14,006 nt of DNA from Escherichia coli (lineage in GTDB: Bacteria > Pseudomonadota > Gammaproteobacteria > Enterobacterales > Enterobacteriaceae), in NCBI RefSeq assembly GCF_003334255.1, contig NZ_QOWU01000080.1. One strand, 5' to 3'. Shown piece by piece: positions 1 to 14,006 of the stretch (position 1 is the first letter of the stretch; the number at the start of each line of letters is the position of its first letter). A program made the position numbers and the translations under genes. Under the pieces are notes generated by a model. It was given only the letters and a program-made list of their open reading frames with translations, ran no database searches and had not been told where the DNA came from.

Positions 1-216
1 GACCCGCCACCCCACGATGTATCCGGCAAACACATCAATGATGAACGCCACATAGACGAAGCCCCGCCATGTGCTGACGTAAGTAAAATCAGCCACCCAC
101 AGCTGGTCAGGTCGTTCTGCCACGAACTGACGGTTTACGTGGTCGCCTGCGGCAACGGCTTTCCGGCTGATGGTCGTACGGACCTTTTTACCCCGGAGAA
201 CACCGGCAAGTCCCAT
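1..216 (-). pseudogene. IS3-family transposase OrfB (DDE integrase) internal fragment; runs off the window start and lacks orfA and the OrfB N-terminus
   Basis: Minus-strand translation of 1-216 gives MGLAGVLRGKKVRTTISRKAVAAGDHVNRQFVAERPDQLWVADFTYVSTWRGFVYVAFIIDVFAGYIVGWRV, matching the IS3-family OrfB core; an in-frame stop lies just upstream and no orfA follows. Confidence 0.6.
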
Positions 217-289
217 AACCGCCATGTCGCAGTCGTCAGTCTGCTACTCGAATGGCGTAACGTAGCCATTTTTCTGGCCCCACACGTAG

Positions 290-8436: not shown

Positions 8437-8688
8437 AGCTTTTTCCTCAAAAAAATCTCCGGTATAAAACCAGAGGCTTGTTATAGGGGTCAGTTTGGAG
8501 ATCGGAAAATTTTGTTCGTTAAGCACATTATTTAACCAATAGATATGCGTAACGGATTGATTTTGCGTCAACGGCTATCGCTTTTAAGTTATCGCCATTG
8601 CGGTATTGCATTTAGGTTATCCGATAGAGGTCAAATCCTCTGAAAATGCCGTATAGCACGGGAGTACACCCTACCGCAATAGCGCAAC

Positions 8689-8704
8689 CGTACAATATTG
8701 TACG
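8689..8704. promoter_or_regulatory. Perfect 16-bp palindrome CGTACAATATTGTACG
   Basis: Self-complementary; half-site resembles the TGTACA operator motifs near the phd promoter; lies in the divergent intergenic region. Confidence 0.3.
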
Positions 8705-8865
8705 TTTCCCAAACGCAGCCCATCAGGCGCGGAACTCATCGAGGCGCGGGAATAAAATCCCATTCAGATGCCGGATAGATTCAAGCAAGCCCACTTATCG
8801 TCAAAATCGGTGTTGCAAAAACGGGAGTGACCATAGATTCGTTTCCCAAACCGCCCCCTTTTATA

Positions 8866-8899: not shown

Positions 8900-8916
8900 C
8901 TCAAAGAGGAAGCACT

Positions 8917-9141
8917 ATGTTTACATGTAACTATAGCCATGCTCGCGATAACCTGGCCTCGTTGCTCGAGCTGGCGGTTGATGAAAATCAGCCAGTTGAG
9001 ATTCAGCGCCGTAAAGGTGGCGCAGCTGTACTGGTTGATAAAGACGCTTTTGAACGATACCGTAAAGCGGCTCTTGATGCTGAGTTTGCTGAGATCATGC
9101 AAAGTCATGGGACGGCCTATACGGAGCTTTCTAAGCGATGA
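8917..9141 (+). CDS. phd: Phd-family antitoxin
   Basis: 74 aa, MFTCNYSHARDNLASLLELAVDENQPVEIQRRKGGAAVLVDKDAFERYRKAALDAEFAEIM..., closely resembling P1 Phd as recalled; GAGGA 6 nt upstream; stop overlaps the doc start (ATGA). Confidence 0.85.
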   Translation: MFTCNYSHARDNLASLLELAVDENQPVEIQRRKGGAAVLVDKDAFERYRKAALDAEFAEIMQSHGTAYTELSKR

Positions 9142-9524
9142 AATTCGTTAGTTCACAGGAAGTGATTGAGTTTCATGACCGCTTGATTTCGCGTGATGGT
9201 GGCGTGGCGGGTATGCCAGAACCCGGTCGCGCTGACGCGATCATTCATCGTGTTTTGAACATGTATCATTATGAAGGTGTGACAGATATTATGGATCTGG
9301 CTGCCGTGTATTTAGTTGCTATTGCTCGTGGTCACATTTTCAACGATGCAAATAAGCGAACAGCCTTGTTTGTTGCACAGGTTTTTTTAAAACGGAATGG
9401 TGTACATATTATTAGTTCACGTATTTCGTTTGATGAAATGCAAATTATCGCTTTGAATGCTGCAACAGGAGAATATAACTGGAAGATGGTTTCTGACCAT
9501 CTTAAAGCCATTATTCTAAATTAG
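9138..9524 (+). CDS. doc: Doc toxin (Fic/Doc family)
   Basis: 128 aa with the Doc-type motif HIFNDANKRTA and GMPEPGRADAII, resembling P1 Doc; translationally coupled to phd. Confidence 0.9.
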   Translation: MKFVSSQEVIEFHDRLISRDGGVAGMPEPGRADAIIHRVLNMYHYEGVTDIMDLAAVYLVAIARGHIFNDANKRTALFVAQVFLKRNGVHIISSRISFDEMQIIALNAATGEYNWKMVSDHLKAIILN

Positions 9525-10567: not shown

Positions 10568-11158
10568 CTATACAGTAACAGTTTGCTGTTTCGCTCTAAC
10601 TCTCAGAATTGTTTGCCGTGTGGTTCGGAATTCCCTGGCAATAGCACTTATACTTGCCCCAGACTTAATGCGTTCGAGTACCTTCTGTTTTTGTTCTTCA
10701 TTTAATACCGGTGGGCGACCAAAACGTTTTCCTGCATCCCGTGCTCTTGCTATCCCTGAATAAGTTCGTTCAAGTAAAAGATCTCGTTCAAATTCAGCGA
10801 CCGCTGAAATCACTTGCATTGTCATTTTTCCTGCCGGACTGGTCAGATCAACACCACCTAATGCCAGGCAATGCACCCTGATGCCAGATTCGGTCAGTTG
10901 CTCCACTGTTTTCCTGATATCCATTGCATTACGACCGAGGCGATCCAGTTTTGTGACTATCAATACATCGCCACTTTCCAGACGATCAAGCAACCGGTTA
11001 AAACTAGGACGTTCACTGGCTGCTACTGAGCCACTAATTTGTTCTTCGATTATTCGTTGGGGTCTGACGTTAAAACCCGCGCTTTCGATTTCCCGACGTT
11101 GATTTTCGGTCGTCTGTTCCAGAGTGGAAACCCGACAATAGGCAAAAATTCGAGACAT
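10568..11158 (-). CDS. tnpR: Serine recombinase, Tn3-family resolvase TnpR
   Basis: 196 aa; N-terminal catalytic motif [22 protein letters not shown]-helix region, C-terminal HTH; divergent from tnpA. Confidence 0.9.
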
Positions 11159-11318
11159 AGTGAGATCTTCTGTACGAAATAGGTGTACATATTATAATGC
11201 ATGTCCGAAAGTAATTTCGCTGACTTTCGGATATATCTGTTTAACAATGTCCGAAACCGGTCGTTTTCGGTCACAACAAATCCATAACATATGAAAACTT
11301 TACACGAGGGAAGCATTC
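11159..11318. promoter_or_regulatory. res site region with divergent tnpR/tnpA promoters
   Basis: Repeated imperfect inverted half-sites (TGTCCGAAAGTA...GACTTTCGGATA; TGTCCGAAACC...TTTTCGGTCACA) and a palindromic ATTATAAT giving a -10-like hexamer on both strands. Confidence 0.5.
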
Positions 11319-13037
11319 ATGCCACGGCGACAAATACTGAGTAGTGAAGAGCAAGCTCGCCTGCTGGTTATACCAGATGATGAAATTATTCTGACCAGAA
11401 TGTGTTTTCTTTGTGATAAAGATATTGCTCTCATTAATAAGCACCGGCGTCCAGCTAATCGCCTGGGCTTTGCGGTATTACTCTGTTACCTGCGTGGGCC
11501 TGGATTTGTTCCGGACAAAAATAATGTTCCCCACTGTGGCGTTGTATCCAGAATTGCTTCAAGACTGAAGCTTCAGCCCGATTTATGGCATGAATATGCA
11601 GCCAGAGAGCAAACCCGCTGGGAGCATCTGGCTGAACTTTATCGCTACCTGAAATTATCTCCGTTCAGCCGAACTCTGCAAAAAGACTGCATTCGGCATC
11701 TGCATTCCTATGCCATGCGAACAGATAAAGGATTTACTCTGGCGGAGGAAATGCTCAGTTGGCTACATAACAATAATGTTATTTTCCCGTCGGTTGATGT
11801 GATCGAACGGACGCTTGCCGAAGCCGTCACACTTGCTGACAGATCTGTTTTTTCGGCACTTACGACACAACTGGGAAAGCAGCATAGATCTGCACTCGAC
11901 AGCCTGCTCATATCAGAAGGGGAACAACCTTCCCGACTTGCGTGGCTACTTCAGCCTCCCGGTAAAATTAACGGTAAAAACGTGCTGCAACATATCGATC
12001 GACTTAATTCTATCACCGCGCTGGAATTACCTGATGGTATTGAGCTTTCCGTTCACCAGAACAAATTACTCAAACTGGCGCGTGAGGGCCGAAAAATGAG
12101 CAGCAGAGATCTGGCAAAATTCACCGATATCAGACGTTACGCTACGCTGGTTTGTGTCATTCAGGAAGCCAGAGCAACATTGACTGATGAAGTTATCGAG
12201 CTACACGAACGCATTATGGGCGGTCTGTTCAGCCAGGCAAAACGCACACAAGCCGAGAGGCTTCAGTTAACAGGCAAACTTATCCAGAGCAAGTTAAGAC
12301 AATATGTTACTGTCGGTCAGGCGCTACTGCATGCCAGAAAGTCAGGTGAAGATCCCTGGGCCGCGATAGAAGATGTTATTCCCAGGCAGGAGTTCGTCAA
12401 CAGCCTGGAAGAAACACAGTTGCTGTCCCGTAAAGGTAATTTCGATCCTCTTCACCTGATCACCGAAAAATACAGCACACTTCGAAAATACGCTCCACGA
12501 ATGTTGTCAGCATTGCAGTTTGTAGCGACACCTGCGGCGCAGCCGCTCAGCGATGCACTGGATACTATAAGGGAAATATACCGTAAGCAGCTTCGTAACG
12601 TTCCGCCTACAGCGCCAACAGCATTTATTCCTGAAAGCTGGCGAAAACTGGTATTAACGCCTTCAGGCATCAATCGAAAATACTATGAGTTTTGTGTACT
12701 GAATGAACTCAAGGGGGCGTTACGTTCCGGAGATATTTGGGTAAAAGGGTCGCGTCGTTACAGAAATTTTGATGATTATCTTATCCCGGTCACTGAATTT
12801 GATAAATCCCGACAAAATGACCAGTTACAACTGGCTGTGCAGACTGATTGCCATGCATATCTTCAGGCCCGTATGACGCTTCTTGCATCTCGTCTGGAAG
12901 AAGTTAACGCAATGGCTCTTGCCGGTGAGCTGCCGGATGTTGATATTTCAGATAAAGGAGTGAAAATCACTCCGCTGGAGAACGGGGTTCTGAGGTGTAC
13001 TGGCAATAGCGGACACTACCATTTGTTCTTTTTTTAA
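11319..13037 (+). pseudogene. tnpA: Tn3-family transposase TnpA, N-terminal ~557 aa only; interrupted by IS insertion at about 12990
   Basis: N-terminus MPRRQILSSEEQARLL...RPANRLGFAVLLCYLR closely resembles Tn3-family TnpA; full-length TnpA is about 1000 aa. The last ~15 codons (LRCTGNSGHYHLFFF) are read from the IS end. Confidence 0.85.
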
Positions 13038-14006
13038 GCAGCCATCTGATGATATTTTTCCCTGAAGGCTGCCGGGGAGATATTCCCCAGACGAGAGTGA
13101 CGACGCTGACGATTGTAGAAAATCTCAATGTATTCCCGTATTACTGAGATGGCTTCATCCCGGTTATTAAAACGATAGTGGCTCAGGCTCTCATTTTTCA
13201 GCGTTCCCCAGAAGCTTTCCATCGGAGCGTTGTCGTAACAGTTACCTTTACGCGACATTGATGTTTTCAGACCAAACTGCTCCTGTATGACCCGGTAATC
13301 GTATGCGCAGTACTGTGAACCTCGATCAGAGTGGTGGATTAGCCCGGCAGGTGGGCGCTGGCTCCTGAGCGCCATAAACAGGGCTTTACCTGTCAGCTCT
13401 TTTGTCATGCGCTCTCCCATGGCGTAGCCGACAATTTCGCACGTATAAACATCTTTGATGCCAGCGAGGTACAACCATCCCTCCTGTGTGGCAACATACG
13501 TCAGGTCCGCCACCCAGACCTGATTTGGTGCTGTAGGAGCGAACGTCTGGTTCAGCAGATTTGGCGCAACTGGCAGATTGTGGTTCGAGTTCGTAGTCGC
13601 TCTGAACTTGCGTTTCTGCTTACAGCGTAGCCTTAGCTCCTTACGAAGACGTGCCAGTTGGTCACGACCAACGATGATGCCATTCTCTGCCAGCTCCGTC
13701 TGGAGCCGCCGGGTTCCATATGTTTCGCGAGTGCGGATATGTGCCACCTTAATCTCCAGTTTTAGCCGCTCATCACTTTGTTTTCTGTCTGAGGGTTCAT
13801 GCTGTACCCAGTTGTAATAACCGCTCCTGGATACACCAAATACCTGACACATCGCTTCAATGGGAAATTGTTGTCGCCATTGTTCGATTAACGCGTATTT
13901 TTCAGCGACTCCTGTGCAAAATACGCTGTTGTAGATTCAATCTGTCAATGCAACACCCCTTTCAATTATCTCTTTCGGTGTTTTGAACTTCAGTGTCTTT
14001 CTCGGT
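12991..14006 (-). mobile_element. IS3-family insertion sequence (3' part with intact orfB; orfA apparently disrupted or absent), runs off the window
   Basis: IS terminus at 12991 (TGAGGTGTACTGGCAATAGCGGACAC) resembles IS3 ends as recalled; orfB intact; only ~17 codons of an orfA-like C-terminus (TAYFAQESLKNTR) precede stops in every frame. Confidence 0.7.
13034..13852 (-). CDS. IS3-family transposase OrfB (DDE integrase)
   Basis: 272 aa with VSRSGYYNW near the N-terminus, WVADLTYV, HHSDRGSQY and CYDNAPMESFWGTLK (DDE catalytic core). Confidence 0.85.
   Translation of the reverse strand: MCQVFGVSRSGYYNWVQHEPSDRKQSDERLKLEIKVAHIRTRETYGTRRLQTELAENGIIVGRDQLARLRKELRLRCKQKRKFRATTNSNHNLPVAPNLLNQTFAPTAPNQVWVADLTYVATQEGWLYLAGIKDVYTCEIVGYAMGERMTKELTGKALFMALRSQRPPAGLIHHSDRGSQYCAYDYRVIQEQFGLKTSMSRKGNCYDNAPMESFWGTLKNESLSHYRFNNRDEAISVIREYIEIFYNRQRRHSRLGNISPAAFREKYHQMAA

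Follow-up and report, generated by a model that had tools for sequence, protein, structure and literature searches.

Probable nested insertion of IS600 and IS30 in a Tn3-family transposase gene of Escherichia coli

The stretch of E. coli DNA analyzed here (14,006 bp, referred to as the window) ends in what is very probably an ordinary nest of three mobile elements, i.e., a Tn3-family transposon with its transposase gene (tnpA) interrupted by IS600, and IS600 in turn interrupted by IS30 at a likely hot spot of the latter. IS600 appears to lack orfA because the window stops 77 bp into IS30. The relevant features are as follows (coordinates in the window, strand in brackets).

8486–8523 (+): terminal inverted repeat (GGGGTCAGTTTGG...CGTTAAG) of the Tn3-family transposon
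10568–11158 (−): resolvase/recombinase-family gene (tnpR-like) from the ORF list, divergent from tnpA
11319–12990 (+): Tn3-family tnpA, codons 1–557, cut by IS600; assigned by NCBIfam transpos_Tn3
12988–12990 (no strand): TTC, left copy of the 3-bp target-site duplication of IS600, from comparison of the flanks with the empty site
12991–13929 (−): right-hand 939 bp of IS600 (IS600 positions 326–1264), an IS3-family element, from BLAST
12991–13019 (−): right inverted repeat of IS600 (TGAGGTGTACTGGCAATAGCGGACACTAC), imperfect, from alignment of both IS600 ends
13034–13852 (−): IS600 orfB, an ATG-initiated ORF of 272 aa, from the ORF list and its translation
13888–13929 (−): last 13 codons of IS600 orfA (TAYFAQESLKNTR) and stop codon, severed from the remaining orfA by IS30
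13928–13929 (no strand): GT, which reads AC along the coding strand of IS600; one of the two copies of the 2-bp IS30 target duplication, from comparison of intact and interrupted IS600
13930–14006 (−): terminal 77 bp of IS30, with the right inverted repeat at 13930–13955 and the last 22 transposase codons plus stop at 13937–14005

The interrupted tnpA gene and its transposon

The transposon contains tnpR and tnpA, and the sequences of both of its ends were read. The terminal inverted repeat forms part of a 238-bp inverted duplication (8484–8721), which matches positions 8592–8355 of locus L001 in reverse orientation (91.6 %). A 5-bp target duplication was sought around both ends of the transposon and was not found. 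The tnpR-like gene is annotated as "recombinase family protein" (WP_012605115.1) in a sister plasmid and in the related plasmid pPKF8-91kb.

A profile scan with the N-terminal 557 aa of TnpA yielded a match to NCBIfam transpos_Tn3 (540.6 bits, E 7e-162; profile positions 2–538 of 954) that spans residues 21–555 of the 557 codons preceding the insertion. In agreement with the original prediction, homology to TnpA stops at 12990, as indicated by this profile and by the BLAST matches to uninterrupted tnpA relatives, which end at the same position. The IS3-family terminus (TGAGGTGTACTGG...) likewise begins at 12991 as proposed, and the open frame of tnpA continues into IS600 for about 15 foreign codons until a stop at 13035–13037. 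Truncation of tnpA by an IS3-family insertion at 12990/12991 was thereby borne out. Removal of IS600 together with one TTC in silico restores an ORF of 994 aa, in accordance with the size of Tn3-family TnpA proteins (~1000 aa).

Identity of IS600 and of the IS30 inserted in it

IS600 belongs to the IS3 group of the IS3 family and was first described in Shigella sonnei. The element rebuilt from L001 comprises 1264 bp with TTC on both sides, and TTC is found on either side of IS600 in L007 as well. The IS600 segment of the window (BLAST span 12991–13931) is 100 % identical to this rebuilt element, which is the window lineage's own copy, independent support being provided by the intact IS600 of sister plasmid pDETEC45, located at the same tnpA site and differing from the window segment by a single SNP. 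Comparison with annotated copies establishes near-identity to IS600 (1 SNP per 1264 bp versus a PGAP-annotated copy); the PGAP label "IS3-like element IS600 family transposase" is used in the sister plasmid and in chromosomes, and the K-12 annotation names a 327-bp left part IS600.

The two ends of IS600 (TGAGGTGTACTGG... and TGAGGTAGCCTGAG...) form imperfect inverted repeats of the 5'-TG...CA-3' type as in the IS3 family, the right one being the only IS600 end within the window. The flanks read GGGGTTC-IS600-TTCCTTCC, as compared to the empty site GGGGTTCCTTCC present in pPKF8-91kb, and show the 3-bp target duplication (TTC) of IS3-family elements. The part of IS600 missing from the window amounts to 325 bp and comprises the left repeat, orfA and the A7 slippery site.

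The orfB gene was predicted to be intact and is indeed of full length: its product scores 353 bits against NCBIfam transpos_IS3 (cutoff 160), contains the Pfam domains HTH_21, rve (E 6.3e-26), rve_3 and rve_2 including the DDE/rve core, and differs from the sister-plasmid copy by a single A/V substitution. Upstream, the orfB frame stays open until it meets IS30 after 13929. When the rebuilt IS600 is translated, a 100-aa OrfA ending in the peptide TAYFAQESLKNTR is obtained, and orfB is open across TTAAAAAAAGC in the −1 frame. This is the two-ORF organization of the IS3 family, in which a slippery site of A6G/A7 type gives rise to an OrfAB fusion; the window itself holds the orfA tail and orfB only.

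Stop codons in all three frames upstream of the orfA tail, noted in the original prediction, are real and lie in the final 77 bp of IS30 (13930–14006) rather than marking a deletion, and its reading of the frame near 13940–13960, which it had conceded might be in error, was correct; the orfA remnant comprises 13 codons instead of the ~17 first counted. These 13 codons followed by stops, together with an IS3-family fragment at 1–226, had suggested a 5'-deleted IS3-family element that lost orfA and its left end, perhaps via recombination with the fragment at the window start. Such a deletion is highly improbable, since the break at 13930 coincides with the right inverted repeat of IS30 and the 3' end of its transposase gene, accompanied by a 2-bp duplication, and since the left part of IS600 is intact after IS30 in relatives. 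Moreover, the fragment at 1–226 represents an IS1203/IS629-like orfB devoid of nucleotide similarity to IS600; as a different element, it supports neither the proposed truncation at the same end nor recombination between IS copies.

The translation of the IS30 tail reads PRKTLKFKTPKEIIERGVALTD followed by the stop codon. ISApl1, the first guess from this C-terminal peptide, was discarded, as BLAST identified IS30 itself. All 77 positions of the tail are identical to the complete IS30 of L001 (1221 bp), which shares 99.8–99.9 % identity with the annotated IS30A and IS30D of E. coli K-12. In size and ORF content the L001 copy conforms to the IS30 family, with an intact CDS (WP_001254932.1) for a single transposase of 383 aa, and its 26-bp inverted repeats, beginning with TGTAGATTCAAT, agree at 23 of 26 positions. 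In the source molecule IS30 is visible for 77 bp; full-length IS30 and the left portion of IS600 are known from relatives (G8 and G6/7 plasmids).

IS30 is oriented like IS600, and the window ends within it. The insertion point is located 5 nt downstream of the A7 frameshift run of IS600. Intact IS600 reads ACGCTGTTGC at this position and the interrupted copy ACGCTGT-IS30-GTTGC, i.e., GT is present on both sides of IS30 versus a single GT in intact IS600, corresponding to a 2-bp target duplication.

Relatives and probable order of events

The closest relatives of the window, the two G8 and G6/7 plasmids, share the tnpA context and are 100 % identical over 11555–14006 (the last 2452 bp). Both contain the complete 1221-bp IS30, the GT duplication and then the left inverted repeat, orfA and slippery site of IS600, the whole being a simple nest (2487 bp) in which both target duplications are present. 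The original prediction had named an intact orfA and left inverted repeat just beyond the window as what would refute it; in substance this is what the relatives show, both features being present not directly beyond the window but 1.2 kb further on, with orfA split into 87 and 13 codons. At this tnpA site, sister plasmids have IS600 without interruption.

Elsewhere, the two closest plasmids lack 504 bp of the window (11051–11554) owing to a deletion, and neither collection searched contains a record combining this segment with the IS30 junction. An 11-mer near the deletion boundary (GGGGTCTGACG) resembles the Tn3 inverted repeat and was dropped as a candidate, since the similarity does not extend. 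The junction of IS600 orfB with IS30 occurs in 48 plasmids of PLSDB, and among 5426 complete E. coli genomes it is present in 1090; for the opposite IS600/IS30 junction the numbers are 36 plasmids and 1284 genomes, counts of identical junctions being inflated by shared ancestry. Its presence in many plasmids and genomes argues against an artefact at the IS600 orfB/IS30 junction.

From these states, the following order of events may be proposed for the source molecule. On an E. coli plasmid of IncK2/Z type, IS600 would have entered codon 557 of tnpA in a Tn3-family transposon by ordinary transposition with a 3-bp TTC duplication, inactivating the transposase of the transposon. Later insertion of IS30 into IS600 in the same orientation, duplicating 2 bp (AC when read along the coding strand of IS600), would have left orfB with the right inverted repeat on one side (within the window) and orfA codons 1–87 with the slippery site and left inverted repeat on the other (outside it). 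Beyond 14006, the source molecule is expected to continue with 1144 bp of IS30, GT, 325 bp of IS600 (TGCTTTTTTTAATAT... to ...GGCTACCTCA), TTC and the continuation of tnpA (CTTCCGGTG). Since IS600 is split by IS30, the OrfAB fusion transposase should no longer be made; both IS600 ends survive, and therefore the 2487-bp composite could still move in trans. IS30, the innermost element, would be the only one of the nest retaining a working transposase.

The far end of IS30 in the source molecule might instead adjoin something other than the left part of IS600, due to an IS30-mediated adjacent deletion or inversion or to recombination between IS30 copies, in which case IS600 would truly be without orfA locally. 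Precedents are provided by strain ATCC 8739, in which IS600 orfB-IS30 is joined to IS911 orfB, by the KpLE2 region of K-12 (IS911B[1–334]-IS30D-IS600[327–1]) and by IS911-IS30-IS600 chimeras among metagenome loci; furthermore, the exact source of the window is absent from the searched collections. Such a rearranged end is nevertheless unlikely in view of the simple nest in both plasmids that are identical to the window over its last 2452 bp.

Somewhat less remote, albeit still improbable, is the replacement of an intact plasmid-borne IS600 by a pre-existing chromosomal or plasmid IS600::IS30 copy via homologous recombination or gene conversion. Donors would be plentiful, as IS600::IS30 junctions are very common in E. 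coli, and at the sole SNP relative to the sister plasmid, position 576 counted from the right end, the copy of ATCC 8739 likewise has G. However, the latter differs at two other sites in the right part, and the left part (325 bp) shows no difference from IS600 of the sister plasmid, whereas the K-12 copy differs there at two sites. A donor-specific tract is not visible, and the flanks show the same level of background divergence (one SNP per 1.26 kb). The single difference in 1264 bp between interrupted and intact IS600 is too little to separate a fresh IS30 insertion from gene conversion; direct insertion of IS30 at a hot spot is the simpler explanation and is preferred here.

IS30 site preference and comparison with known systems

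The published consensus of IS30 hot spots is 24 bp long and near-palindromic. A survey of IS30 ends covered 130 loci from metagenome contigs and representative genomes (12 loci from the latter); at 101 of these an IS3-family element lies next to IS30. When the flanks are clustered, the six largest groups correspond to either side of the frameshift window in IS3-like elements, in IS600 and in IS911. An empirical weight matrix was built from 33 IS30 flank clusters without detectable IS3-family context, some of which may be unrecognized IS3-family sites, and ranked the IS600 site first of 16,743 positions (20.9 bits versus 14.0 for the runner-up). The A-run plus GC motif occurs in fixed register in 9 of 54 clusters versus 22 of 33,516 background positions (p about 1e-19). 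At homologous positions, IS30 is also present in IS3-like elements and in IS911A::IS30A of K-12, in the latter case with the same AC duplication and in the same orientation; moreover, IS911B and IS600 of K-12 both adjoin IS30D. Insertion of IS30 into nearly palindromic hot spots with 2-bp duplications, as well as interruption of K-12 IS911 by IS30A, have been described (PMC9333248).

The IS600 site is thus likely an IS30 hot spot. Given the preference of IS30 for near-palindromic sites, the IS3-family frameshift window (TTAAAAAA(A/G)GCnAC) would represent a strong half-site, through which IS30 may have been directed to IS600 by sequence, and the motif would be recognized directly by the IS30 transposase. 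With about even chances for and against, one may speculate that the programmed −1 frameshift window of IS3-family elements, among them IS3, IS600, IS911 and less closely related members, is a systematic target of IS30 and its close relatives (90–100 % identical), with the recoding signal (A-run plus GC) itself serving as the half-site. IS3-family elements could not easily mutate away from this target, since the recoding signal is needed for their transposase, and IS30 would act as a recurrent site-specific inactivator, seeding chimeric IS3-family/IS30 junctions that drive rearrangements. Earlier work on IS30 hot spots probably used some of these genomic sites, and the literature may already contain part of this proposal implicitly. 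In broader terms the point is a modest one; if such targeting is as general as suggested by the survey, one insertion sequence exploits a conserved functional signal of another.

In terms of annotation, the locus should be described as a Tn3-family tnpA pseudogene cut by IS600, itself cut by IS30, and not as a truncated IS3-family remnant. Across many genomes, IS600, IS911 and IS3-like elements carry IS30 at one and the same nucleotide of their frameshift window, which explains the frequent "orfA-less" IS3-family fragments beside IS30 in E. coli annotations; in such cases a nested IS30 should be looked for before a deletion is called.

The rebuilt element resembles known IS600 in length (1264 bp), TG...CA repeats, orfA/orfB overlap, A7 run, 3-bp duplication and HTH_21 plus rve domains; unlike the latter, the present copy is split by IS30 after position 325, precluding formation of the OrfAB transposase. 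The IS30 copy of L001 corresponds to IS30A and IS30D of K-12 with respect to length (1221 bp), 26-bp repeats, 383-aa transposase and 2-bp duplication, while the window contains only the last 77 bp of IS30 and the remainder is deduced from near-identical plasmids. The KpLE2 region of K-12 (IS911B / IS30D / IS600 (insM) / IS911B-1) displays the same joint between the left end of IS30 and IS600 orfA (99.4 % identity over IS600 positions 1–327), but represents a rearranged mosaic in which the other IS30 end adjoins IS911B at the IS911 hot spot and the orfB half of IS600 is absent. In IS911A::IS30A of the CP4-6 prophage of K-12 (NC_000913.3), the host element differs, i.e., a chromosomal, prophage-borne IS911 which is also truncated at its right end, whereas IS30 is likewise located just 3' of the slippery A-run.

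Structure of the interrupted IS600 element

The structure at the window end is real, ordinary and well understood: an IS600 element residing in a Tn3-family tnpA is itself split by IS30. The features involved are as follows.

Features of the window (strand and source where assigned)
1-226, minus strand: IS1203/IS629-like (IS3-family) internal orfB fragment, running off the window start
8486 (start): Tn3-type inverted repeat, GGGGTCAGTTTGG...CGTTAAG, with its inverted partner beyond the window
11051-11554: 504-bp segment with the resolvase gene 5' end plus 236 bp from the start of tnpA
12991-13929, minus strand: IS600 part (megablast of 12991-14006 against PLSDB)
13034-13852, minus strand: IS600 orfB, ATG-initiated ORF (ORF list, translation of 12960-14006)
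13888-13929, minus strand: orfA tail, last 13 codons, ending in a stop upstream of orfB (minus-strand translation)
13930-14006: IS30 end (megablast against PLSDB)

Alignment of the window to three sister IncK2/Z plasmids continues without a break up to 13931, and these plasmids carry the annotation "IS3-like element IS600 family transposase". As stated in the original prediction, orfB is intact; its long open frame yields a product assigned to NCBIfam transpos_IS3 (353 bits, cutoff 160) with HTH_21 and rve domains (Pfam). Past ~13930, translation of 12960-14006 gives stops in all three minus-strand frames, one of which terminates in PRKTLKFKTPKEIIERGVALTD*, foreign to the IS3 family. These stops had also been correctly read, but the orfA tail preceding them comprises 13 codons and not ~17.

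Plasmids NZ_CP060058.1 (E. coli G8) and NZ_CP060062.1 (G6/7) match at 100 % to position 14006, with an IS30 transposase annotated across the window end. Positions 11555-14006 are 100 % identical to the G8 plasmid (L001), in which a 1221-bp IS30 starts at the equivalent of 13930, its inverted repeats agreeing at 23 of 26 positions. Since GT is doubled around IS30 in L001, versus a single GT in the intact IS600 of the sister plasmid pDETEC45 (ACGCTGTTGC), the 13929/13930 junction represents a simple IS30 insertion with a 2-bp duplication, as is typical for this element (PMC9333248). Removal of IS30 and one GT from L001 restores an IS600 of exactly 1264 bp with imperfect inverted repeats (TG...CA), an orfA of 100 aa and, in the -1 frame, an open orfB. 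The IS30 insertion, which has the same orientation as IS600, is found 5 nt downstream from the A7 slippery run (TTAAAAAAAGC); judging from L001, codons 1-87 of orfA are separated from the window part by the 1221 bp of IS30 and lie beyond the window end, together with the slippery site and the left inverted repeat.

Extension past 14006, proposed as a check and carried out via relatives, was the right test, revealing IS30 followed by the remainder of IS600. Since the break marks an insertion and not the end of a deletion, the claim of a 5'-deleted copy devoid of orfA does not hold. The suspected recombination with the IS fragment at the other end of the window fails as well: positions 1-226 share no nucleotide similarity with IS600 and belong to an unrelated element, which is truly 5'-truncated (~80-100 codons into orfB).

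The split IS600 is unable to produce the OrfAB transposase. The interrupted orfA runs into the IS30 left inverted repeat, resulting in a predicted 122-aa product (L001 6163-6423 plus IS30 left end, minus strand). A 122-aa "IS911" ORF beside IS30, tabulated for a ColV-type plasmid fragment (PMC2212542), is probably the same kind of orfA/IS30 fusion.

The Tn3-family transposon

The 557 pre-insertion codons of tnpA match NCBIfam transpos_Tn3 (profile positions 2-538 of 954). The frame then enters the IS600 right inverted repeat for ~15 codons, those originally described as junk, and stops at 13035-13037. TTC is present on each side of IS600 (GGGGTTC-IS600-TTCCTTCC), the empty site in plasmid pPKF8-91kb reads GGGGTTCCTTCC, and deletion of IS600 plus one TTC yields an uninterrupted 994-aa Tn3-family tnpA. 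An inverted duplication of 238 bp (91.6 % identity; window 8484-8721 versus L001 8355-8592) opens with the Tn3-type repeat and probably delimits a ~6.6-kb transposon of the Tn3 family. A 5-bp duplication around this transposon was not found, the flanks being TTATA and TACAG. Given the repeat at 8486 with its inverted partner, IS600 in tnpA and IS30 in IS600, the locus reads as a three-level nest. The putative ~6.6-kb transposon would carry a phd/doc toxin-antitoxin pair (~8916-9524), tnpR, tnpA and an acyltransferase gene.

Origin of the IS30 copy

The G8 and G6/7 plasmids, elsewhere 100 % identical, are devoid of the segment 11051-11554, and the sister plasmids lack IS30; the content past 14006 is therefore deduced from relatives. 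No record in the collections searched combines 11051-11554 with the IS30 junction. Rearranged IS30 joints are known, e.g., from ATCC 8739, where IS600 orfB-IS30 adjoins IS911 orfB, but a non-canonical far IS30 junction in the present molecule is considered very improbable.

The window IS600 differs from the intact pDETEC45 copy only at 13566 (IS600 position 689, counted from the left end), an A/V change that alters OrfB from LPVAPN to LPVVPN. The window allele is shared with the chromosomal copy of ATCC 8739. This 1-SNP divergence equals that of the flanking DNA, and the left part of IS600 is identical to the sister copy, K-12 and ATCC 8739 copies differing at other sites. No donor tract is visible, but a single differing base gives this comparison almost no power. 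Direct hot-spot insertion of IS30 is favoured, acquisition of the interrupted IS600 by gene conversion being considered unlikely.

Recurrent IS30 insertion into IS3-family elements

Among PLSDB plasmids, 48 contain the orfB-side junction and 36 the orfA-side junction; among 5426 complete E. coli genomes, the numbers are 1090 and 1284, respectively, which is far too common for an artefact. Inheritance of one chromosomal arrangement around the fec/KpLE2 region accounts for much of these counts; despite inherited copies, independent insertion events are evident. One tnpA site in the plasmid lineage holds IS600 both intact and IS30-bearing, 1 SNP apart. Moreover, comparison of metagenome contigs (L020, L050, L070, L096, L135) with L001 places a 2487-bp IS600::IS30 composite in no fewer than three genomic contexts, which differ in the short direct repeats bordering the composite (GAA, AAC, GATA); two IS600 sequence variants are represented. 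Either a disabled unit was mobilised in trans, or IS30 struck IS600 separately at each site.

Representative genomes and metagenome contigs were surveyed for matches to the IS30 left end (L008-L139). This yielded 130 loci with 177 half-site flanks, grouped into 54 distinct clusters, these flank counts not being equivalent to independent events. IS30 adjoins an IS3-family element in 101 of the 130 loci, and the six largest clusters correspond to the left and right flanks of the frameshift window in IS600, IS911 and an IS3-like element. More distant IS3-family members (OrfA 31-43 % identical) carry IS30 at, or close to, the corresponding place at the end of orfA. IS30-like copies of Yersinia aleksiciae and Tatumella (90-94 % identical) also flank TTAAAAAAGGC-type half-sites.

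A weight matrix (half-site consensus T.AAAAAAGGC..C) was trained on 33 clusters without detectable IS3-family context, some of which may be unrecognised IS3-family sites. It ranks the IS600 site first among 16,743 positions of the rebuilt pre-insertion sequence (20.9 bits, with 14.0 for the runner-up). In fixed register, the A-run plus GC motif occurs in 9 of 54 clusters versus 22 of 33,516 background positions (p ~1e-19). Thus, recurrent, position-exact IS30 targeting of IS3-family frameshift windows is well supported and is the sole part of the locus with wider interest. It is likely to be at least partly known: the hot-spot nature of E. coli genomic IS30 sites is probably implicit in the literature, since a 1998 study of IS30 target specificity reportedly used such sites.

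Further independent events are seen in K-12: IS911A of the CP4-6 prophage (L003, 270206-272190) carries IS30A at the homologous nucleotide, with the same orientation and duplication as in IS600 (...ATATTAAAAAAGGCT[AC]-IS30-[AC]CGCGCTC versus ...ATATTAAAAAAAGCA[AC]-IS30-[AC]AGCGTAT in IS600), and IS911B is joined to IS30D at the same point in opposite orientation. At least two of the surveyed loci contain IS911-IS30-IS600 chimeras. The mosaics of K-12 KpLE2 (L006, 4507125-4509801; IS911B[1-334]-IS30D-IS600[327-1]-IS911B[454-]) and ATCC 8739 (L005; IS600[1264-324]-IS30-IS911[336-]) look like IS30-mediated or IS30-homology-mediated rearrangements between hot spots.
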